Positions 1 through 31,686 of a stretch of 64,000 nucleotides of DNA are shown here, in pieces; the stretch's first letter is position 1, and every line of letters begins with the position of its first letter. The notes beneath the pieces are model-generated. The model was not told where the DNA came from. It was given only the letters and a program-made list of their open reading frames with translations, and searched no databases. The position numbers were made by a program, and so were the translations under genes. The DNA comes from a virus (taxonomy: Duplodnaviria; Caudoviricetes). Where the stretch lies: positions 64,001 to 128,000 of IMG/VR virus record IMGVR_UViG_3300033463_000025; one strand, 5' to 3'.

Positions 1-1044
1 AAACAAAGCGGCATCGGTTTCAACCTGTGACATACAGTAGATAGAAGTTGCAAGTTGATAAACCATTTCTTGACTATCTGTTTCACTTAGGAGCTGACGC
101 ACATAATACTTCGGGTTAGGATTAGCATTATAATCCCATATTGTTTGTACAGAATTGACAATCCAATCAACAGCCTTAATATCCTTATTGCTAAACTTTA
201 ACCTTTTAAGGACAGCCTTCGTCTTCTGTGGGTCTTTGAAATTAAAGAGAATAGCAAGTTTACTGTGAAGCATCAACTTATCTCTTGATATTCTTTTTAG
301 TCCCTCATTAATACGAAGGTAGCTATATCCTCCATCTTTAAATTCGGGAATAATCGGTTCTAAAACATATAACAACTCATCTTTCTTAGTGATAAACCCG
401 TTTAAAGTCTTGACAAGTTCATCGTGAATACGCTCCACAGCTATATTCTTTAATAAATCCCTCTTAGCACAAAGCGTTTCATATGTGCTTGGTTCAATCC
501 AAAAGTCAAGATTATTAGCAAAACGAACAGCTCTAATTATTCTAAGAGCGTCTTCCTCAAATCTCTCTTCGGGATTGCCGACACAACGGATTAGCTTTTT
601 CTTAATATCTCTTTTACCACCATAAGGGTCAACGAATCCATCAACAGGGCTATAAGCCATAGCATTAATAGTGAAGTCACGCCTTACTAAGTCAAGATTA
701 ATGTCATCAGTAAATACTACATCGTCTGGCTGACGGTTGTTAGAATATTTACCATCCATTCTATAAGTAGTAACCTCATACATAACGCCATCGAAAACCA
801 CGCCGATAGTACCAAAGTTTTCTCCGTGGCTGGTGACTTTATAATCGTCGCTAAATAACGCCTTAGTTTCTTCGGGCTTCATGCTGGTACAAATATCCCA
901 ATCGTGAGGCTTCATTTGTCTTAGTGTATCACGCACACAACCTCCGACCACATAAGCGGTATGCCCTGCTTCGTAAATCTTATTTATGATTGTTTCAACC
1001 GCTTCTGGCAGTTGAATATAAAACTTCTTTACATTCGCTTTCAT
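1..1044 (-). CDS. cca: CCA-adding tRNA nucleotidyltransferase / poly(A) polymerase family (3' part runs off window)
   Basis: Manual translation from ATG 1044: MKANVKKFYIQLPEAV...YVVGGCVRD...DWDICT...DLVRRDFTINAMA...FEEDALRIIRAVRF (class II NTase motifs). Not in the ORF track because it is truncated. Confidence 0.9.
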   Translation of the reverse strand, partial: MKANVKKFYIQLPEAVETIINKIYEAGHTAYVVGGCVRDTLRQMKPHDWDICTSMKPEETKALFSDDYKVTSHGENFGTIGVVFDGVMYEVTTYRMDGKYSNNRQPDDVVFTDDINLDLVRRDFTINAMAYSPVDGFVDPYGGKRDIKKKLIRCVGNPEERFEEDALRIIRAVRFANNLDFWIEPSTYETLCAKRDLLKNIAVERIHDELVKTLNGFITKKDELLYVLEPIIPEFKDGGYSYLRINEGLKRISRDKLMLHSKLAILFNFKDPQKTKAVLKRLKFSNKDIKAVDWIVNSVQTIWDYNANPNPKYYVRQLLSETDSQEMVYQLATSIYCMSQVETDAALF

Positions 1045-1802: not shown

Positions 1803-2042
1803 TTAAATCTCTCCGTGATAAATATACTTTCCGTAAACTGTATCGTTTCCATATTTGTCAATGTGTCGTTCGTACTGCGTTTCAATATTATACCTGCGAC
1901 GCAGGTTAAAAATGATAGCACTTAACCTTGTGGCGGCGTACAACTCGATAGCTTCTAAACTTGTTATACTCCCATGTTCCTGTAGATGCTGAAGCACTTT
2001 TAGAGCCTTATTGGTCTTTCTGTGTTTTGATTGAGTTTTCAT
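1803..2042 (-). CDS. winged-helix/HTH domain protein
   Basis: VLQHLQEHGSITSLEAIELYAATRLSAIIFNLRR; start moved to ATG 2042 (GAGGT RBS). Confidence 0.65.
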   Translation of the reverse strand: MKTQSKHRKTNKALKVLQHLQEHGSITSLEAIELYAATRLSAIIFNLRRRYNIETQYERHIDKYGNDTVYGKYIYHGEI

Positions 2043-2095
2043 TAGTAACCTCTTGAAAATAAGTATAGTGTGTTTTATAGCGTTTGTCAATAGCC

Positions 2096-2892
2096 TTATT
2101 GACTTATGTTAAAATTTGGATTATTATTTACCCATTTATTGTAAACGAATAATTTTTCTGTTACCTTAAATTGATTATCTTTGTTTCTATCGAGAGTCCT
2201 TGTAAAAGGCTTCTCCCAAATAGCAACAAAGTCATCGGGAGCAACTTGTTCTGAAATAAACATCAAATGGTTTTGACTTACAGTTCGTGCATATTCCCAA
2301 AACGCTTGACTATCAAACACCATTTTGCCATAACCTGTAGTACCGTTGTAAGGTGGGTCTGCGTAAATAACACAGCCTTCTGGTAACTCTACATCACGAT
2401 AATCTCTACAAATGAATTGTGCATCCATAAGTGTAGCCATATCCTTGAGTAAAGATTTCTTGCTTTGTGCGGCATAGTTTGTACCGCCCTTATTACGAGC
2501 ATAACCGCCAAACCATTTACCGCCGAAGCTACAGCCGAATCCAACAAAGCCAGCTAACACCTTATCATCGTTTTTATTGGCTCGAATGTTTTTATAATCT
2601 TCTTCGGATATGTAATCAGGAAGCTCGTAACCGTTCTGAACACCCTGTAACATCGCTATCAGATATTCATGGTTATCGTTCAAAATCTTGTGTTTAAATG
2701 ATGTTAGTTTACTTTCAACAGAACAAGTGCCGCAAAACAAACTGACTAACTCACAGCAGTTTTGCCCCCCCCGTTAGGCGGGAAATAACACTCGCTATTG
2801 ACTTGGAAATTCTTGATTTCCCGCCTTGATAACGCATCTATTTCCTCCGCTATTCTTTTTGCTATACGACTTTTACCGCCTAAATACTGCAT
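2096..2892 (-). CDS. Dam-like (D12 class) DNA adenine methyltransferase, out of frame at a G8 tract (phase-variable, OFF state)
   Basis: Body has LFCG and ADPPY motifs; two YxGGKS N-termini (ATG 2892 and ATG 2837) lie in the other two frames upstream of C8 at 2765-2772. Confidence 0.85.
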
Positions 2893-3227
2893 TACGAAAC
2901 AACAAATTTTTGAATCGCGCTATACAGCTTTTCACTTTCAGAGCCACATACCAGTGTGTTATAATCAACCTCATGTGCGGTATGTTCACGGCTTCTATTC
3001 TTCAAAGCGTTAGCCGCTACGCCAAGCGATGACAGGAATGATTTAGCAGAAATAATCCACTCTTCCCCATTCTCATCAAAGCCCATCAGCTTAACCTTTT
3101 CAGGGATAGCGCAAACAGCCTCATTAAACTCCTTAAAGTCATCGTGGCAGGTAAGTTCAATCTTGTATTCGTAAGTAAACATTTTCATATGCTTGTCCAT
3201 AATTAACCTCATTTCTTTATTGTACAT
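2892..3227 (-). CDS. HPr-like protein (tentative)
   Basis: DFKEFNEAV...IISAKSFL resembles the HPr Ser46 region (xAKS); size fits; no evident His15 motif. Confidence 0.4.
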   Translation of the reverse strand: MYNKEMRLIMDKHMKMFTYEYKIELTCHDDFKEFNEAVCAIPEKVKLMGFDENGEEWIISAKSFLSSLGVAANALKNRSREHTAHEVDYNTLVCGSESEKLYSAIQKFVVS

Positions 3228-3579
3228 TTTCTATTTCTTGTGTATTATCTTCTTCTGTATCGACCCTAAGTATTCTTGCAATTACGAAAACCGTAATTAC
3301 GCAAATAAGTTCAATCGCCAAAAGAATAGATAGGATAATAAGAATAACATTTAGCCATTCAGGAATTGGTATATTCATATTACGAAGTACCGAACTAACG
3401 GTAATGAATATCAAATCAACAAATGGCAGTATAGTAAAAACTTTTGGTAGAATTTTATATAACACTACTTTGTGCCTCCAAACTGGTTTTATAATAAAGC
3501 CTTTTAGCTTTACTTTGAACAATATCCCAATACTTACAATTTGGGATTGAAGTGTTGAGTATTCTTTCAATTTCTTCAT
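3217..3579 (-). CDS. putative membrane protein (start uncertain)
   Basis: Two hydrophobic segments; 5' part overlaps the next ORF. Confidence 0.45.
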   Translation of the reverse strand: MKKLKEYSTLQSQIVSIGILFKVKLKGFIIKPVWRHKVVLYKILPKVFTILPFVDLIFITVSSVLRNMNIPIPEWLNVILIILSILLAIELICVITVFVIARILRVDTEEDNTQEIENVQ

Positions 3580-4354
3580 GCTCCATTAAAGTGTGTTTAA
3601 AAACAAAAGAATACCCTTTGCTTGAATAACATCTCGGATTGCTATGATTTAACTTGGTAATTTCTAATAAATCACCTCGTATATAAATGGTGATAGGATA
3701 ATGAACATTGAAAACACCATAATTCAAATCGTCGCCGTAACTTAATCCATCACCATATTTAGTAATCCATTTATTCTCAATAGCACCATTGACATTCTTG
3801 CTTGCTGTTGGCTCATTCCCATCCCACATATCATAAGTAAAGCCTAAAAACATCGGAAAAGGAATATCGGAATTATCTGTTATTTTCTTTTTTGGCTCAA
3901 ACTTCATTATGGGTTTCCAATCATCGTGAGTTTTCGGCTTTTCATATCGCCACTCAATCCCGTTATTAAAGATACGCAAATCAATATATTCAATGTCAGG
4001 TAAAGACAACAGCCAATCTCGATACTCTTTAGCCGTGTCAAAATTACCACCATGACGTTTAATCCAGCGAAGCAAAGTATTATCAATATCTTCAAGCTGT
4101 AATTGATATTCGGATTTTTGTTTTGCCGCTTCACGAGCCTCTTTTTCTAATTCAAACATTCTCTTAGCAAACAAAACAGCTTTATCATAATCATAGAATA
4201 CATTTGATTTCTTTATATGTGGGTAATCTAAACGACCATATTCGCTTTTAATACTAACCTCATCGCAATATTGGTATTCATACCTGATTTGCCCAGGTAT
4301 AACATCGTAATGCCCTTCGGGTGTTCTATCAACAAAATATATCGTATCGCTCAT
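3455..4354 (-). CDS. hypothetical protein
   Basis: 299-aa ORF, coupled start, GAGG RBS. Confidence 0.75.
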   Translation of the reverse strand: MSDTIYFVDRTPEGHYDVIPGQIRYEYQYCDEVSIKSEYGRLDYPHIKKSNVFYDYDKAVLFAKRMFELEKEAREAAKQKSEYQLQLEDIDNTLLRWIKRHGGNFDTAKEYRDWLLSLPDIEYIDLRIFNNGIEWRYEKPKTHDDWKPIMKFEPKKKITDNSDIPFPMFLGFTYDMWDGNEPTASKNVNGAIENKWITKYGDGLSYGDDLNYGVFNVHYPITIYIRGDLLEITKLNHSNPRCYSSKGYSFVFKHTLMEHEEIERILNTSIPNCKYWDIVQSKAKRLYYKTSLEAQSSVI

Positions 4355-4740
4355 TTACTTATTTCCTCAAGAAATGGTAAGCTATCCATATAACGGTTAT
4401 ACTCTTTTATTAGGTTTTCTAAACAGATAAAGCCTGTAACCTCTTTACCAAAGTTTTCACCATAGAATGGTGTATATGGCTGACAAAAATCCTCATCAAG
4501 AACAATGATGTTATCAAAATCATTCCAGTCCGAAAAATTTTCAGTAAAAGCTATATCAATATCGTAGTCAAACTTATACTTTTTACCTTCAATAATTGAC
4601 GTTATTTCAACATAATGCGTTTTGTAAAGAACACAGCCTTCTTTTATAATCCAAATTGCATTACCCTCTTTACAACCTGCTTTGATGAGGTCGTCTTTGG
4701 TAATGCCATCTTTGAGCTTATACCTTTTAATCTGTGCCAT
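4351..4740 (-). CDS. hypothetical protein
   Basis: 129-aa ORF, GGAGG RBS. Confidence 0.75.
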   Translation of the reverse strand: MAQIKRYKLKDGITKDDLIKAGCKEGNAIWIIKEGCVLYKTHYVEITSIIEGKKYKFDYDIDIAFTENFSDWNDFDNIIVLDEDFCQPYTPFYGENFGKEVTGFICLENLIKEYNRYMDSLPFLEEISK

Positions 4741-5014
4741 TTACTCGCCTCCCGTATTGAAAGTCAGACCAATCCAAAACTTGACCGCAATCTTGACAAC
4801 GCTTATCTCTTACGCGACTACTACTACCGTTGCCGCTTCGTACTCGTCTACCACAAGTTGGGCAACAGCATTGTGTATGACTGCCTAAAACTTTTCTCGG
4901 CGTGAGCATACCAATCACATTATTTAGTGCTATCGTAACATTTACAGGAGCATCGTTAAGCTGTACCATCACAGCCGCGTCTTTTAGGCTATCGAGCAGT
5001 TCAATACTATTCAT
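4727..5014 (-). CDS. zinc-ribbon protein
   Basis: CPTC...CQDCGQVLDWS. Confidence 0.7.
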   Translation of the reverse strand: MNSIELLDSLKDAAVMVQLNDAPVNVTIALNNVIGMLTPRKVLGSHTQCCCPTCGRRVRSGNGSSSRVRDKRCQDCGQVLDWSDFQYGRRVNGTD

Positions 5015-5199
5015 TTTTTATTTATCCCCATTTTATACTTATGGCATTTATATCTGCCATATCTTCTACGTTTCTTACCTTTTGCAATCCGAAACATCAT
5101 AATCGCCACAACGAGCTGAAGGAAATTTAATATACAAATTGTAAACGAATAATTACCTTTCAGCATTTCGTTCACAATGGTCTTAAAATATTCAATCAT
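5011..5199 (-). CDS. small membrane-anchored hypothetical protein
   Basis: One hydrophobic helix and a basic tail. Confidence 0.5.
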   Translation of the reverse strand: MIEYFKTIVNEMLKGNYSFTICILNFLQLVVAIMMFRIAKGKKRRRYGRYKCHKYKMGINKK

Positions 5200-5217
5200 A
5201 TGTATTTGTAATCCTTA

Positions 5218-5724
5218 TCATTTTATTTTTCTTTCAACAACAACTATGGTATCATTGTGCCAACCGCCGTGTGGGACGAGTAACACTTCTTCAATTTCAA
5301 ATCCGTATTTCTTTCCTATACCGCCAGAGTTCCAGCTACAAGTAATAACCTTGCCATTCGATTTTACTATTCGCCCTATCTGTTCTTTTTGTTTAGACCA
5401 GTAACTTGCCTGTGTGGTCTGCATATTCACGGTATAATTCAGTTGTTTATAACACTCGCTCACCTGCCGTGGTGAGAACGGCGGGTCATATAAAACCATA
5501 TCAACAGAGTCATCATCAAATAAAGCCAAAAAGTCTGTAGCGTCCAAATGATAATCTGTATTGTACTGTGTGTCTAAATCATTAGTAACAGTAGCGAGTT
5601 TATTCTTATTAGCAAAAGGGTCGATTATAATGCCCCCCCCGATATGCCGAGCTAACAGCTCTTTAATCGGTGGAACATCAAATGTGTTCTTGCTCGGCAT
5701 AGCCCATTTTCGGCTTATTTTCAT
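5218..5724 (-). CDS. small adenine-specific DNA methyltransferase with in-frame G8 tract (ON state)
   Basis: IIDPFAN and VLYDPPF motifs; C8 at 5633-5640 encodes GGG; ATG 5724 overlaps the metK stop. Confidence 0.85.
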   Translation of the reverse strand: MKISRKWAMPSKNTFDVPPIKELLARHIGGGIIIDPFANKNKLATVTNDLDTQYNTDYHLDATDFLALFDDDSVDMVLYDPPFSPRQVSECYKQLNYTVNMQTTQASYWSKQKEQIGRIVKSNGKVITCSWNSGGIGKKYGFEIEEVLLVPHGGWHNDTIVVVERKIK

Positions 5725-6509
5725 CGAATCAAACCCCATTCGGCAAACTTTTCAAAACCGCCGACGCTTTTAATATATGCACGAGCGACGTTTACAATTT
5801 GCTCATACGGAATACCGTCAATAGACTCATCACCAATAGCGCAACACATTTCGACTGGTTTACCTGTTTCTTGGGCTTTAAGATGAGCGTAAATGTTTAC
5901 ACTTACATCAGCCTTTGAAAAGTCCTTCCCCATTAAGCCGCCGCCTGTGACAGAATCACCCATATCAGAGCCGAGTTTACGATTTGTAGCACCTGTGTCA
6001 ACCTCTACGCCGCCCGTCCAATAACCAAGCGGATTGACGATTGCATCAGGATATAATTTTGCAATATCAAATTTTTCTGCAAAACTTTGACAAATAATCA
6101 GCTTGTCGCCGTTGAGAATATACTTGCCATCGCTACCATACTTGTCATATAAGCGATGTGCTATATCAGATAAAGCCTTCTGTTCTGCCGTTACAGGCAT
6201 ACCCCTAAAGATACCGTTATCGCCACAGCGGATTTTACCATGCTGATTCGCGGCAAGGTGAATATCTTGCGACACAAGACGGAAATCTGTGAGCAGTTTA
6301 TTCCCACCAATGCGATTAACAATATTGTCTGTCTCATCCCAAGTGATATTTACAGAGCTTTCAACTATGATATGGCAAATACCATGACCGATAAGCACTT
6401 CAACCGCAATCCGTGGATTCTCCGCTTTGGAATACGCTAAGTCAACTAATGCGCCAGCAATTCTATCGGCTATCTTATCAGGGTGTGACGGATTAACTTT
6501 CTCGAACAT
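5721..6509 (-). CDS. metK: S-adenosylmethionine synthetase, compact phage type
   Basis: EKVNPSHPDKIADRIA, GDNG, DTGATNRKL, GGGLMGKDFSKADVS match MetK signatures. Confidence 0.9.
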   Translation of the reverse strand: MFEKVNPSHPDKIADRIAGALVDLAYSKAENPRIAVEVLIGHGICHIIVESSVNITWDETDNIVNRIGGNKLLTDFRLVSQDIHLAANQHGKIRCGDNGIFRGMPVTAEQKALSDIAHRLYDKYGSDGKYILNGDKLIICQSFAEKFDIAKLYPDAIVNPLGYWTGGVEVDTGATNRKLGSDMGDSVTGGGLMGKDFSKADVSVNIYAHLKAQETGKPVEMCCAIGDESIDGIPYEQIVNVARAYIKSVGGFEKFAEWGLIR

Positions 6510-6684
6510 CTCTTACTTCCTCTCTTGTAATGATTGTATCTTCTTTTATTTCGCACATTTTTAATAAATCGTCTTGACAGGTACAAGCGCATGAAAGCGA
6601 ACAACCATAACACGGTTTATATGGTTTGCTGTTACATTTAATCATCAACTTTGCAAATTCTTCTTTTGTACAAATGATTTTCAC
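6493..6684 (-). CDS. small Cys-rich hypothetical protein
   Basis: GTG start with GAGG RBS; fills the gap in the operon. Confidence 0.55.
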   Translation of the reverse strand: MKIICTKEEFAKLMIKCNSKPYKPCYGCSLSCACTCQDDLLKMCEIKEDTIITREEVRDVRES

Positions 6685-7432
6685 GCAACATTCCTCGCTT
6701 TATTAATTCGTTCTTTAGCAATCTCATACATCTGTAAATCGTTTTCAATACCAATGAATCTTCTTTTGGTATTGATGCACGCCTCGCCAGTTGAGCCGCT
6801 ACCCATGCAGTTATCAAGGACAACATCATCCTCGTTGGTATATGTATTTATTAACCATTCTAAAAGTGCAACAGGCTTTTGCGTCGGGTGAAGTCTGCTA
6901 CCGTCCCTTGAATAGCTCAATATCGACAAAGGATTTCTCGCTCCGTCAAGCGACTCAGTATAAGCTACACCTCTATCGCCGTAGTTATCAGAAAGACTAC
7001 CGTTTTTAGTTTTCTTATATGGTGTTGAATACCATAGCTGTTTATTATATGTGGGTTTCTTTTTATAGAAGATTGCAATTTCCTCATGGGATTTCAAAGG
7101 TTTCACATTAGCATTAAGAAAATCAGAGCCACGTTGTTTATCCCATATAAGGTTATAACGCCACATCTTTTTATTTGATAACATAAGGTCTGCCATAAAC
7201 AAACCATCGCAAAACAAAGCTATACAACCGTTCTGTTTGATAATTCTGTTGTACTGTTCCCATAGCTTTTCAAATGGAATAACAGTGTCCCATTTATTTC
7301 TTGTCGTTCCGTATGGAAGGTCGCAACAAATCATATCAATACAACCGTCAGGGAGTTGGCTCATAACCGATAAACAATCTTGTCGCCAAAGGCTTACCCC
7401 CCCCGACTCAGAAGATTATTTATATCAAGCAT
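6681..7432 (-). CDS. beta-class N4/N6 DNA methyltransferase, N-terminus out of frame at a G8 tract (OFF state)
   Basis: DLPY, HPTQKP, VLDNCMGSGSTG; ATG 7432 with AAGGAG RBS reads MLDINNLLSRGG* through C8 at 7397-7404; +1 G fuses it to VSLWRQDCLSVMSQLPD. Confidence 0.85.
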
Positions 7433-7718
7433 ACTCTACTCCTTCGGGCGGCTCAGGCAATTCAGCCCAAAAACGCACATTAGTTATTTCATAAAATCCG
7501 TATTCGGAATCATAATCAAACCAACCGCTTTTACCATTCTTATCAGCAAAGTCATATTCATCTACATTAATTAGATTATTAGCGTATTTAGCTATTCTAA
7601 GAAAATAATATCCGCTAAGTGTATAAGACTTCGCAAAAATGAGGTAAGGTCTTCTATCTAACTTTGGAGGGTCTAACTGTGCATCGTGCCAAATTACTTT
7701 TGTAGCATTATCGTTCAT
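7425..7718 (-). CDS. DUF551-like hypothetical protein
   Basis: WH...PP start and VRFWAELPEPP C-terminus, a common phage pattern. Confidence 0.6.
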   Translation of the reverse strand: MNDNATKVIWHDAQLDPPKLDRRPYLIFAKSYTLSGYYFLRIAKYANNLINVDEYDFADKNGKSGWFDYDSEYGFYEITNVRFWAELPEPPEGVEYA

Positions 7719-7743
7719 ATCGTTTCCTTATATTTCTATTGAC

Positions 7744-9278
7744 TTATGTTATAGATTTTAATAAATGGGCTATGACTTCAACAGTCCAGCCGTTACCTAA
7801 ACATTTATATGCTTGTGAGTTGCTAATCACACTAAAGTCATACCATTCTGGTACTGTCTGCAACCGCATACATTCTCTTACTGTTAGTTTACGAATTATG
7901 TAAAAGCCATCAGACAACTTAATCGGATATGTTTTTCCTTTAATTGTTATCTGTCCATTGACAACTTCGTAAACCGTATATACTTTACCATCGGCAAAGC
8001 TCTTAGCTTTTATAGGTATATCATCTTGCCATTCACACGGTTCAGCATAATGTAACGGATTTTGTGTATTAATCGTTACAGCATACAGCCCTGTCTTACC
8101 ACCAAGACCACCACCATTAGCAGACAACGTAACAGATTTGCCATCTTGCGAATATACCCTCATCGCTTGAGAATTATTTGTTTCTCCATTCGATGACGGC
8201 ATACATCCTACCTGTTCAGCTACCATGCTTTTACAGCCTTTTTCTATAGTATGGCTCACATAGTTCCCTATGTTTTCTCCGCTACCGTTTTTATATCCTG
8301 CTGTTAAGCAATAAGATTTATCGTTCTTAGTCATTCCCACTGGCTCTGCAACACCACTCGCGCCATATGTTGAAGTGTATTTACAGATGTTTGCAATACT
8401 CGTTTGTTGATATTGTGCCTTAATAGTTTGTGACTTTCCTTCACCAGTCGTATTCACTGGTTCAATCGTTCGGGCAACAACGTCGCTCGTTGGATTAGAT
8501 GCTAAACAATATGCTTTATCTTTTACACCAACTCTACGATTGCTTAAATCACCAACCATTGAAAACGCTTTAGGTAACGCAACAGGCTCAACCGCCATAT
8601 TTCGTTGATGCCGCTCTATGGTGTTCCACGCAACCGCACCGCCATAAGCTGTGGTTAGCGTCCAGCCTTTTTCGTTGCTCGTCAAATCATCGGCGTTATT
8701 TTCGAGAATATCTCTTAGTAATATTCCTCTATCCTCTGGCTGTTCTATATCCGCCTTTTGATATGTACCATCTTCTTGACGAATACCAACCCAATACAAC
8801 CGCTGACGGTTTTGAGCTGAAACAAGTGCAGAATTTATACAAATCGGCTCAAATCCAAATGTGTCAGAAATGCTGTCATAAATAGCTCTTGACATTGATT
8901 TGTTGTTTTCGTAAAGAAAGTATTTCGGTTTTGCTTCTTTAATAGCTCTTACAAACTGGCTAAACAATTCCCAGCCCATACCGCTTGCTTCTGTTTCGCG
9001 GTTGTTCTTTTGAGCGATGCTCCAAAAAGTACAGGGCGAACCTCCGATAAGATAATCAATACCGTCAAACTGCGTATAGTCTGCATCAAATACATCACCA
9101 CACTGGATGATACTCGGAAAGTTATGCTGGCTAACTTGAATAGCATACTTATCTATCTCATAAGCATAATAGTCTTTGACTTCTATACCAAGTCTTTTGA
9201 ACGCCAACATACCACAAGACATTCCATCAAATAAACTAAGAACAGATACCCCATCTTGTGATGAAATATCTCTTTCAT
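7744..9278 (-). CDS. C5 cytosine DNA methyltransferase (start unresolved)
   Basis: VLSLFDG (motif I, upstream of track start 9222), GGSPC, YENN, QNRQR, GNGW; long variable region. Confidence 0.9.
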
Positions 9279-9477
9279 TACAATAATGTTAGTTACGATT
9301 GGCTTATAATCTGACTTTCTATAAATCGCACACAACTATCAATAATTGTAAGAAGAAAATAACTAACGGAATTATGGGGTGTTTAGTAATATGAATCAGG
9401 ATAAAAGAGATATTTCCTTATACTCGTTTATCCTACAATTACAATTATAACACTATTTATAACATAAGTCAATAGTT

Positions 9478-29868: not shown

Positions 29869-31686
29869 TTATGCAACCGTTTCTTCCAACATGAGCACTT
29901 TGCTTTCGGGAGAAACGATAAAACGCTCACGCTGGGCGAATGTCTGATTGTACGATTCCTCGCCTTCAAATTCATCTATTACTCGGCGTTCTTCTTCGTC
30001 CATAGCTTTGTATGTTTTCTTTCCGTAGGACGGCGGCAACCAGCCCTTCTTCATACAGCCGTAAATGTTAAACTTCTTCAGAACGTCAAGGTCGGTAAAC
30101 TTGATATGAACTGTACCCTTCTTGTACACGTTTACATCGAAATACTTGAAATGCAAATTCTTTGTGGTCTGCGTTTTTTCGTATGCCTCTAACCAATGGT
30201 GAAGGTCGCGCTGAATTTCATTTTCTCCACCATCAAGGAAGTCAAAACACTTTTCAATATCGTCAAGGATTCTGCCGATTTCTCCGTCATAGAAGTTATA
30301 CTTGAATTTACCCCAAATAGAATCCCAACATCTACACCACGGCACAACAACCCTGGGATTGATGATGAAAGCAGAGTTAGATTTCCAACCGCTGAAGTAG
30401 TGAACGTTTCCACTTGCTTCCATTGAATGTTTGTATGTCAGCTTTTCAAAGAGCGATATGATTTTATCCTCGATACCTTGAGCTACAGACTTGAGCATAT
30501 CAATTCTTACAGCGTAGATATTTGACAACGAAAAATCCTTCTTGGCATATTCCTTTATATCGGCAAAATACTGTTCTTTAAGATTGGAAGTAAGATTGCC
30601 GATAAATGCAGGCTTATGTAAAAGCTCATACCAATATTTGTATCTTACGGAATAAACATACTTGTTCCACTCAAAAGCCTTACCTCTTCCGTCTACCAGT
30701 CCGATATGTGCGCCGCGCTTGTATGAAGGCAACTCTTTTTCATCGCTGGCAAAGTATAAAGAAATATGCGGCGATACGGCAAGGTATTCTTCATACAGCC
30801 TCTTCCCCATCGCTATTTCTTTTTTATACATCAGCACAGCTTGACGCATATAATCAGCGGTCACAATTTCAGAAGTGTTATAGTCAGGCTCATCAACAGT
30901 GATTTCCATTTCCTCAAGCTCATCAAGGATTGTGGAATGTGCATTGTTGAACGGCGAAGGAATATCAATACGCACGATTGCACACTCAACATCTGTCTGG
31001 CGTTCAGCCTGTTTGAAAGCACCGCTAACATATTCAATCTCGGCATTGTAGAAGTCGAGCTGTTTCTTCAATTCTTTGCGCCAATTAGAATAGGGATTGT
31101 CAAGAGTCTGACGGTTAAGCAGACAAATAATCTTTCCGCCTGTTTTCTTGGCTACGTTGATTGCGTGAAGAAGATGCTCGTCGCCGTTGCTAAAAGGCGG
31201 ATTCATAATGATTAAGTCGAAGTGTTCATCGCCGTTAAACTCTAAGAAGTCGCTACCAATAACGGTATAATCTTTGTCTTTAAGGATTGCTCTAAGTCCG
31301 TCGTCAACCTCGATACAATTAACGTCTAACTTTTCACATCCCTCACGAATGTCACCAATGAGATAACGCCTTTCATCTTCATCTTGGCTATACTTTCTTT
31401 TGTTATAGTCTGCTATCCATTGAGTAGTCATGTACTTATAAATCATTTCTTCATAAGTAATTTTATAAGCAACATACTCTTCAAAGATAGGGTCTTTATA
31501 ACGATAGCTCCCCATTCTGTGGCTAACGCAGTAACGCATATAGCAAATGAAGTCTGCAATATCACCCTTGCCTGCTGACGGCTCAAGCACACTCTCAATA
31601 TCGGTCAACTTAATGCCTTTAATCATTTCCGCTACAAGTTCTGGCGGAGTCGGATAAAATTCAGTTAATGATTTGTATGTACTCAT
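29869..31686 (-). CDS. N6-adenine methyltransferase with DUF4942-like C-terminus
   Basis: FYPTP, VLEPSAGKG, IMNPPF; YFDVNVYKKGTVHIKF. Confidence 0.88.
   Translation of the reverse strand: MSTYKSLTEFYPTPPELVAEMIKGIKLTDIESVLEPSAGKGDIADFICYMRYCVSHRMGSYRYKDPIFEEYVAYKITYEEMIYKYMTTQWIADYNKRKYSQDEDERRYLIGDIREGCEKLDVNCIEVDDGLRAILKDKDYTVIGSDFLEFNGDEHFDLIIMNPPFSNGDEHLLHAINVAKKTGGKIICLLNRQTLDNPYSNWRKELKKQLDFYNAEIEYVSGAFKQAERQTDVECAIVRIDIPSPFNNAHSTILDELEEMEITVDEPDYNTSEIVTADYMRQAVLMYKKEIAMGKRLYEEYLAVSPHISLYFASDEKELPSYKRGAHIGLVDGRGKAFEWNKYVYSVRYKYWYELLHKPAFIGNLTSNLKEQYFADIKEYAKKDFSLSNIYAVRIDMLKSVAQGIEDKIISLFEKLTYKHSMEASGNVHYFSGWKSNSAFIINPRVVVPWCRCWDSIWGKFKYNFYDGEIGRILDDIEKCFDFLDGGENEIQRDLHHWLEAYEKTQTTKNLHFKYFDVNVYKKGTVHIKFTDLDVLKKFNIYGCMKKGWLPPSYGKKTYKAMDEEERRVIDEFEGEESYNQTFAQRERFIVSPESKVLMLEETVA

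Follow-up and report, generated by a model that had tools for sequence, protein, structure and literature searches.

Poly-G tracts as candidate phase switches in three DNA methyltransferase genes of an uncultured phage

A methyltransferase cassette with three G8 tracts

The locus described here lies in a window of 64,000 nucleotides (bases 64001-128000) of the IMG/VR record IMGVR_UViG_3300033463_000025, a Caudoviricetes genome of 143,758 bp with 37% G+C, a 127-bp terminal overlap and a CheckV completeness of 100%. At positions 2096-9300 of this window, where all the genes are located on the minus strand, several DNA methyltransferase (MTase) genes are found together with a gene related to MetK, the methionine adenosyltransferase (MAT). 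Three of these MTases (hereafter MT1, MT2 and MT3) carry a run of exactly eight G on the coding strand (G8), appearing as C8 on the plus strand. We consider it likely that these G8 runs are simple sequence repeat (SSR) contingency loci, kept by selection in three orphan phage MTases and switched by slippage. The genes and tracts concerned are the following:

2096-2892, minus strand: MT1, D12/Dam-class N6-adenine MTase (PF02086, phrog_56), frame-broken and OFF, with its body at 2096-2764
2890-2892, minus strand: MT1 start 1, an ATG coupled through TAATG to the upstream open reading frame (ORF), reading MQYLGGKSRIAK...
2835-2837, minus strand: MT1 start 2, an ATG with GGAGG at 2844-2848, reading MRYQGGKSRISK... 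(alignment A1)
2765-2772, minus strand: poly-G tract 1, G8, within a variable linker that joins the N-terminal YxGGK motif to the body (..VSLFCG..)
5218-5739, minus strand: MT2, small (~168-173 aa) DPPF-type N6-adenine-like MTase (phrog_11619), ON
5633-5640, minus strand: poly-G tract 2, G8, encoding GGG directly before motif I (IIIDPFAN)
5721-6509, minus strand: compact MetK-family (MAT-like) protein of 262 aa (PF00438, fold search)
6681-7432, minus strand: MT3, PF01555 N6/N4 MTase (PF01555 found on the read-through translation P0003), frame-broken and OFF
7397-7404, minus strand: poly-G tract 3, G8, at MT3 codons 10-12, ON at G6/G9

The initial annotation of this DNA, made from the letters alone, had reported a G8 near the 5' end of three different MTase genes, in the states OFF, ON and OFF, and no other G/C run of this length in the window. 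The coordinates proved exact, each tract being located in the 5' part of an MTase of a different type (D12/Dam class for MT1, small N6-adenine type for MT2, PF01555 for MT3), and frame arithmetic and read-through translations gave the same assembled states. By the same arithmetic, a change of one G flips the product of each of the three genes between ON and OFF. The uniqueness of the tracts extends to the whole genome, in which they are the only G/C runs of at least 7 nt, the next longest being two G6. Analytic order-1 and order-3 estimates predict 0.16-0.21 runs of at least 8 nt, against the three observed (Poisson P ~1e-3). The five MTase-like genes of this genome represent 3.8% of its length, and the probability that all three tracts fall within them is ~5e-5; long G/C runs are thus enriched in MTase genes (3/3 tracts). 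Runs of A/T of 8-9 nt are not commoner than a rough composition estimate, and a repeat check of the whole genome revealed no other notable repeats outside A/T runs. PF01555, PF02086 and PF00145 have one member each in the genome.

The read-through translation of MT1 (P0001) matches PF02086 with 57.7 bits (cut-off 22) as well as the DNA methyltransferase family phrog_56, and its body carries the DPPY motif (YADPPYNG). MT1 presents two starts in different frames ahead of the tract. Start 1 (MQYLGGKSRIAK...) joins the frame of the body at G6/G9/G12 and start 2 (MRYQGGKSRISK...) at G7/G10, the third upstream frame being closed, so that MT1 is OFF only at G8-type lengths (G8/G11). Therefore, a slip of +1 or -1 alike turns MT1 ON, with two isoforms.

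MT2 matches phrog_11619 ('DNA methyltransferase', 1.8e-49), with visible DPFA and DPPF motifs, and PF10237 only weakly (19.8 bits, under the cut-off of 23.2). MT2 begins before the MetK-like gene ends, and its frame is ON at G5/G8/G11. The read-through translation of MT3 (P0003) matches PF01555 with 118.7 bits over profile positions 1-221 and contains CDLPY and NCMGSGSTG. The true start of MT3 is the ATG at 7432, with a ribosome-binding site (AAGGAG) at 7439-7444; at G8 a stop follows immediately past the tract, and gene callers instead give a 227-aa product from an internal ATG at 7364 (P0004). A rescue of MT3 by this internal ATG was rejected, as it has no Shine-Dalgarno sequence and deletes the ..DCLxVM.. 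leader that is conserved in full-length relatives. One detail of the initial annotation had to be corrected: adding one G to the MT3 tract gives ...SRGGGVSLW, and the ...SRGGVSLW proposed there corresponds to the G6 reading.

Tract length and switch design in relatives

The region 2000-9300 had no megablast match among the INPHARED phages, and a search of IMG/VR with P0001 retrieved no match to MT1. Relatives of MT1 were obtained from scans of metagenomes (L267-L272) and bacterial genomes (48 contigs), the latter belonging mostly to gut or rumen Clostridia such as Ruminococcus, Oscillospiraceae, Acutalibacter caecimuris, Flintibacter muris and Oscillibacter. Their layout is that of MT1: start 1 comes first, then a conserved GGAGG; start 2 lies in another frame some 55 nt after start 1 and is followed by a variable linker bearing the repeat and by the conserved ..VSLFCG.. 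body. This design of two starts plus a repeat is kept in 24 of the ~38 MT1-family loci from gut/rumen metagenomes and bacterial genomes. The repeat itself varies by lineage, being G6-G11, (AG)4-(AG)17, (GA)7 or (AT)9.

Both productive phases of MT1 are found among these loci. L267 is ON via start 1 and L270, L271, L281 and L296 are ON via start 2; the window, L268, L269, L272 and others are OFF. Of the loci that combine both starts with a repeat, 10 are ON and 13 OFF, and the distant homologues with a single start and without the repeat are all ON. Several sets of MT1-family loci share their flanks and differ solely in tract length (G7/8/8/9/9, G9/11/9, G10/11 and G9/8). Across 18 loci, the variation of each N-terminus is concentrated in the third codon positions of its own frame (0.41 versus 0.18/0.13 for N-terminus 1, and 0.37 versus 0.12/0.08 for N-terminus 2). 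The two N-termini thus keep their peptides while varying mainly at their own third positions, which argues that both are translated and under purifying selection.

In a subclade of the MT1 family (L284-L290, L295, L298 and L302), a second poly-G is located between start 1 and start 2 (~5908, ~5988). The long isoform would there cross two tracts and the short one a single tract, leading to a more complex table of states.

MT2 shows a different history. Its 80 homologous IMG/VR loci (66-81% identity, 916 kb summed) contain no G/C run of at least 7 nt, and they read ..KYA[TI]GKIVDPFAN with codons that are not G-rich, at the position where the window reads ..RHIGGGIIIDPFAN. By this comparison, the MT2 tract is a derived, lineage-specific creation. 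The idea that the G tracts merely encode conserved glycines was discarded both for MT2, whose 80 homologues read xGx with such non-G-rich codons, and for MT1, whose site is occupied by (AG)n or (AT)n in relatives.

For MT3, the corresponding N-terminal leader of the closest protein relatives (P0005, P0010, P0020 and others, ~80% identical) contains FGGG or FGG; also found among them are near-identical calls that are truncated and start at the internal Met (P0005 versus P0020/P0024). In the MT3 homologue of L092, the tract is located elsewhere, between CIEVMS and IPDKS, and tracts therefore arise repeatedly in tolerant loops. Two further near-identical sets of MT3 relatives (P0059 versus P0099/P0101) differ in their first ~15 residues (MIDIKNGDCLELMPYIPPQS versus MILRMAIALNLCPISPPQS); this difference, for which a change of frame reversed close to a C-run would account, may represent another variant of the switch.

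Evidence for changes in tract length comes from L188 and L189 (IMGVR 3300018430_000066 and 3300018427_000033), which originate from two samples. These show zero mismatches over 18.8 kb, and all their differences are located in three poly-G sites: a C5 MTase (G6/G11), an MT3 homologue (G11/G9, corresponding to OFF/ON) and a PAPS-reductase-like gene (G7 versus GGGTGGGGG). Similarly, in a clade of ~100-kb phages (L202-L251), tract length ranges from G5 to G9 at corresponding sites whose 9-nt flanks are identical. In this clade the N6_N4 MTase is ON in 13 loci (G7) and OFF in 5, the PAPS-like gene is ON in 12 (G7) and OFF in 8 (G8), and a gamma-type N6A MTase, identified by its motifs only, is ON in 9 and OFF in 6. 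Overall, homologous tracts with identical flanks span G5-G11 in relatives, with ON and OFF states mixed. The proposal of homopolymer frame switches in MTase genes is therefore supported by comparative evidence.

The tract-bearing MTases in relatives belong to the C5, D12, N6_N4 and MT-A70 families according to Pfam searches of the flanking frames, together with the motif-defined gamma-type N6A. Tracts are not exclusive to MTases, since in relatives they are also found in PAPS-reductase-like (IbrA-like), DUF2800/PD-(D/E)XK nuclease and radical-SAM-like genes and in a few unknown ones. G8 runs equally frequent in other genes would have told against the link with MTases; in the present genome, no such run is located outside MTase genes. 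In five of their records, the tracts located in DNA-modification loci, as tallied from listed coordinates, are 4/4 (a complete genome of 105.6 kb), ~11/13, ~12/15, ~12/15 and 3/9, and second clusters of tracts surround C5 MTase genes. From these sequences, the enrichment in DNA-modification genes is strong without being exclusive. The G is on the presumed coding strand in 133/162 tracts.

Two other observations concern these relatives. In L188/L189 (400-1800), and also in L325 and L326, the C5 MTase regions are cut into many short frames by 6-9 poly-G located 125-260 nt apart, and the C5 cores of L325 and L326 look permuted (RKLTPxEC ahead of motifs I-VI); such tract-rich regions resemble target-recognition modules arranged in series, each with a switch of its own. 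PAPS-reductase-like (IbrA-like) genes with poly-G in mixed ON and OFF states were observed in L204 (~6922), L241 (~9884 and ~10565), L086 (12108) and L299 (~5681), which suggests a second, non-methyl DNA-modification function under a similar switch.

The MetK-like gene and the C5 methyltransferase

The presence of a MetK-like gene among the MTase genes, also part of the initial annotation, is confirmed as far as family and fold are concerned. When compared to the three MAT domains (PF00438, PF02772 and PF02773), only the N-domain passes (PF00438, 40.5 bits). In a phmmer search of PDB, residues 3-70 and 156-213 align to MetK, and the HPDK, DxGxTxRK and GGGxxGKDxxKxDxS motifs are kept. The AF2 (AlphaFold2) model has a predicted TM-score (pTM) of 0.71, and its top Foldseek matches are all MATs (E ~1e-11, TM 0.5-0.6). 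This protein thus shares with MetK/MAT (PDB 6RK5, 1FUG) the N-domain signature, the triphosphate- and methionine-binding motifs and the overall fold. In contrast, it has 262 aa instead of ~380-410, about one third of the chain being gone, and it lacks Pfam matches to the central and C-terminal domains. It corresponds to phrog_1569, listed as of 'unknown function', and close relatives (~70% identity) are present on more than 560 IMG/VR contigs of 26-58% G+C, L001-L080 among them. It probably supplies or safeguards S-adenosylmethionine (SAM) and, with only 262 aa and a presence in hundreds of phage contigs, may represent the shortest MAT that occurs in nature.

In L092 (3663-5438), the MetK-like gene is interrupted precisely at the GGG|GKD catalytic loop by an insertion of ~330 aa. 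This insert begins with C and ends with N then C, as inteins do, and a Pfam scan of it gave no intein match.

Two features upstream of MT3, and one further MTase-like gene that served as an internal control, complete the set of modification genes:

7744-9290, minus strand: C5 cytosine DNA MTase (PF00145, 136.6 bits), also delimited as 7744-9222
9263-9416, no strand assigned: candidate invertible segment (~150 bp) with 16-nt inverted repeats (I1) at its ends, flipped in silico
29869-31686, minus strand: fifth MTase-like gene of 605 aa, with DUF4942 and a weak Dam/MTS-like domain

The C5 MTase contains no poly-G. As assembled, no in-frame start precedes its motif I, and its upstream frame reads stop-HYCNERDISSQDGVSVLSLFDG. 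The in-silico flip of 9263-9416 provides it with a ribosome-binding site and an ATG (GGGGTG-N9-ATG) and with the frame MNQDKRDISSQDGVSVLSLFDG..., so that the C5 MTase appears, from its sequence, to be switched by an inverton and to be OFF as assembled. The fifth MTase-like gene has neither tract nor repeat. The set of switches is consequently wider than initially described: the three tracts stand, and to them are added the two N-termini of MT1 and the candidate inverton-type switch of the C5 MTase, with the fifth MTase-like gene as a tract-free member of the group.

Slippage switching, its alternatives and its precedents

In the mechanism that we propose, slipped-strand mispairing during phage or prophage replication would add or drop a G, so that start codon and catalytic body come to share a frame or cease to do so, producing a heritable and reversible MTase switch. 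MT2 and MT3 would be simple one-in-three switches, ON at G8 and at G9/G6, respectively. MT1 would be a three-state switch, its repeat being preceded by two homologous N-termini (M[QR]Y.GGKSRI) that each occupy a different frame: G6/G9 would lead to the enzyme with the long N-terminus, G7/G10 to that with the short N-terminus and G8/G11 to none. Together with the inverton-controlled C5 MTase, these genes could reach no fewer than 16-24 methylation phasotypes; the consensus as assembled is OFF/ON/OFF/OFF, and the phage population can probably carry many DNA-methylation patterns. The MetK-like gene would be translationally coupled to MT2. The host of this large phage would be found among gut or rumen Clostridia, and the benefit is probably bet-hedging across hosts whose restriction is blocked by, or dependent on, given methyl marks. 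The tracts, their frames and enrichment, the conserved design and the length polymorphism of relatives are observed, whereas the switching rate, the methylation targets, the synthesis of SAM and this benefit are inferred. Regarding the combinatorial variation of the methylome that the initial annotation had put forward, the capacity is supported by the tract polymorphism of relatives, and hedging between methylation-blocked and methylation-dependent (type IV) restriction is a plausible hypothesis.

Several points weigh against this interpretation. The evidence for length variation rests on relatives, this phage being represented by one strain in the form of an assembled consensus. The genome is listed in three sources at 143,758 and 143,772 bp; these versions probably go back to a single sample that was assembled more than once, with the same tract lengths each time, and their difference of 14 bp would fit an end overlap of 127 versus 141 bases. 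Three tracts of precisely the same length, G8, are also somewhat unexpected if the repeats drift freely. Differences of G9-G11 between assemblies can partly be due to sequencing or assembly error, and the tracts of relatives also occur in the non-MTase genes listed above.

Since many of the relatives lie within bacterial contigs, a prophage phasevarion is a live, if unlikely, alternative. The switches would then act mainly in lysogens, where methylation of the host chromosome would affect expression, induction or superinfection exclusion rather than protect the virion. Phase-variable MTases are well established as regulators in bacteria (PMC12707154), many MT1 relatives are located on long contigs of bacteria, some of them isolates (Acutalibacter caecimuris, with a 259-kb contig, Ruminococcus sp. 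YE282 and Flintibacter muris), and a tyrosine-recombinase-like C-terminus spans the ends of the present genome. Nevertheless, the MTases are orphan and type-II-like, located in a multi-MTase cassette of anti-restriction style beside a MetK-like gene, a layout typical of phage self-protection. They were not found to belong to Type I or III restriction-modification (R-M) systems: they are members of PF02086, PF01555 and the small DPPF type, a profile search of the genome did not retrieve PF02384, and neither Pfam nor PHROGs revealed a restriction endonuclease partner among the ORFs of the cassette, which is negative evidence only. The regulatory target and the lysogeny of this phage are hypothetical, and the two readings can coexist.

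The G8 'OFF' alleles could also be expressed through non-heritable decoding, by transcriptional slippage or ribosomal frameshifting, with the tract tuning the level of expression. Homopolymers of at least 8 nt can provoke slippage of the bacterial RNA polymerase, and the two-frame N-termini of MT1 would capture slipped transcripts too. However, known slippage sites are mostly A/T runs, a structure that would stimulate frameshifting was not seen, although no search aimed at one was made, and differences in length are directly seen in the DNA of near-identical relatives, making this explanation highly improbable. Least credible of all is that the frameshifts represent homopolymer errors of sequencing or assembly, or pseudogenes decaying at G runs: homopolymers are error-prone and 2/3 of the tract genes are broken, but errors would not place G8 runs solely in MTase genes (P ~5e-5), the two listed genome lengths would fit the difference in end overlap with equal tracts, beyond the tracts the gene bodies are undamaged, with open frames and conserved sequence, and MT1 retains a two-start architecture with both N-termini under purifying selection.

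The closest precedent for a poly-G in a phage MTase is found in Bordetella phages. The presence of a poly-G in a methylase of the Bordetella phage BPP-1 is mentioned in bioRxiv 10.1101/2025.10.21.683753, with reference to Liu et al. 2004; there, the bpm tract is noted in passing and never treated as a switch. We examined these sequences directly. The bpm gene encodes a PF01555-type adenine MTase with G8 in BPP-1 (in frame), G9 in BIP-1 and G10 in BMP-1, these phages being at least 99.8% identical across the bpm stretch, and its tract is the only G/C run of at least 7 nt in the 42.5 kb of BPP-1. It is thus likewise a phage-borne PF01555-type MTase with a poly-G on the coding strand. In contrast to the present cassette, where a tract is present in each of three MTases belonging to different families and an inverton is added, BPP-1 has one MTase with one start and one tract, located just before motif I and not in the N-terminal leader, and no MetK.

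SSR-switched MTases are classic in bacteria, as the Type III mod and Type I hsd genes of Haemophilus, Neisseria, Helicobacter and Moraxella (PMC12707154; also PMC5149525). These phasevarions share with our cassette the SSR within an MTase ORF, the reversible ON/OFF switching by slipped strands and the epigenetic heterogeneity of the population. However, they are chromosomal regulators linked to R-M systems, whereas the MTases described here are orphan, type-II-like, phage-borne and presumably self-protective, with several independent switches within one cassette.

The two starts of MT1 recall licA of H. influenzae, in which initiation codons are present in 2/3 frames upstream of the repeat, two phases being productive and one not (PMC2212159). 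MT1 likewise has starts in two frames (ATG 2892 and ATG 2837) with the third closed. Nevertheless, the alternative leaders of licA are dispensable peptides before a CAAT repeat with no duplicated functional motif, whereas each start of MT1 bears its own conserved copy of a catalytic-domain motif (YxGGKSRI), ~55 nt apart and with an internal GGAGG ribosome-binding site. In addition, the repeat type of MT1 turns over among G(n), (AG)n and (AT)n while selection preserves both N-termini. The duplicated two-frame N-terminus is a compact overlapping-code design, in which 2/3 of the repeat phases are productive.

Other phage contingency loci have been studied only recently (Campylobacter phages in 2021 and T2/T4 in 2025), the passing note on BPP-1 being the only one for methylases. 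Poly-G tracts are reportedly present in receptor-binding protein genes of the Campylobacter Fletchervirus, in work attributed to Sorensen et al. in 2021. In T2 and T4, contingency loci include agt (bioRxiv 10.1101/2025.10.21.683753). These are likewise hypermutable homopolymers used by phages for bet-hedging; their targets are receptor-binding proteins or genes such as agt, in contrast to the DNA MTases of a Clostridia phage described here. The type of switch is thus already known, and the two-start design of MT1 is previously undescribed: we found no literature report of multi-MTase poly-G cassettes or of a two-frame N-terminus in gut phages.

Selection-kept contingency loci in the three MTases, our preferred reading, can be extended to a wider proposal, for which we see the case as evenly balanced. 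Phages and prophages of gut and rumen Clostridia would widely carry a 'methylome shuffler', in which modification genes each have their own poly-G, dinucleotide or inverton switch, MT1 has three states and a minimal MetK feeds the system. If true, a virion population would at any time combine dozens of methylation types, in keeping with host restriction repertoires that are diverse and partly methylation-dependent. The locus and the comparative data suggest that uncultured gut phages may switch the modification of their own DNA gene by gene. Phage host range, restriction escape and metagenomic 'pseudogenes' would then have to be interpreted differently, because with tract switching frame-broken phage MTases would be OFF alleles and not junk.

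The neighbouring genes of the cassette are less informative. Between MT1 and MT2 (2892-5199, minus strand), six small ORFs of 111, 120, 299, 129, 95 and 62 aa are found, the 95-aa one being Cys-rich and zinc-ribbon-like. A Pfam scan of the 111-, 120-, 299-, 129- and 95-aa ORFs retrieved no match, and a PHROGs scan of the 111-, 299-, 129- and 95-aa ORFs gave only a weak match of the 95-aa ORF to phrog_27132 (unknown function, E 5e-4). At the edge of the window (1-1044, minus strand), a nucleotidyltransferase of the CCA-adding / poly(A) polymerase family is present (PF01743, PF12627).

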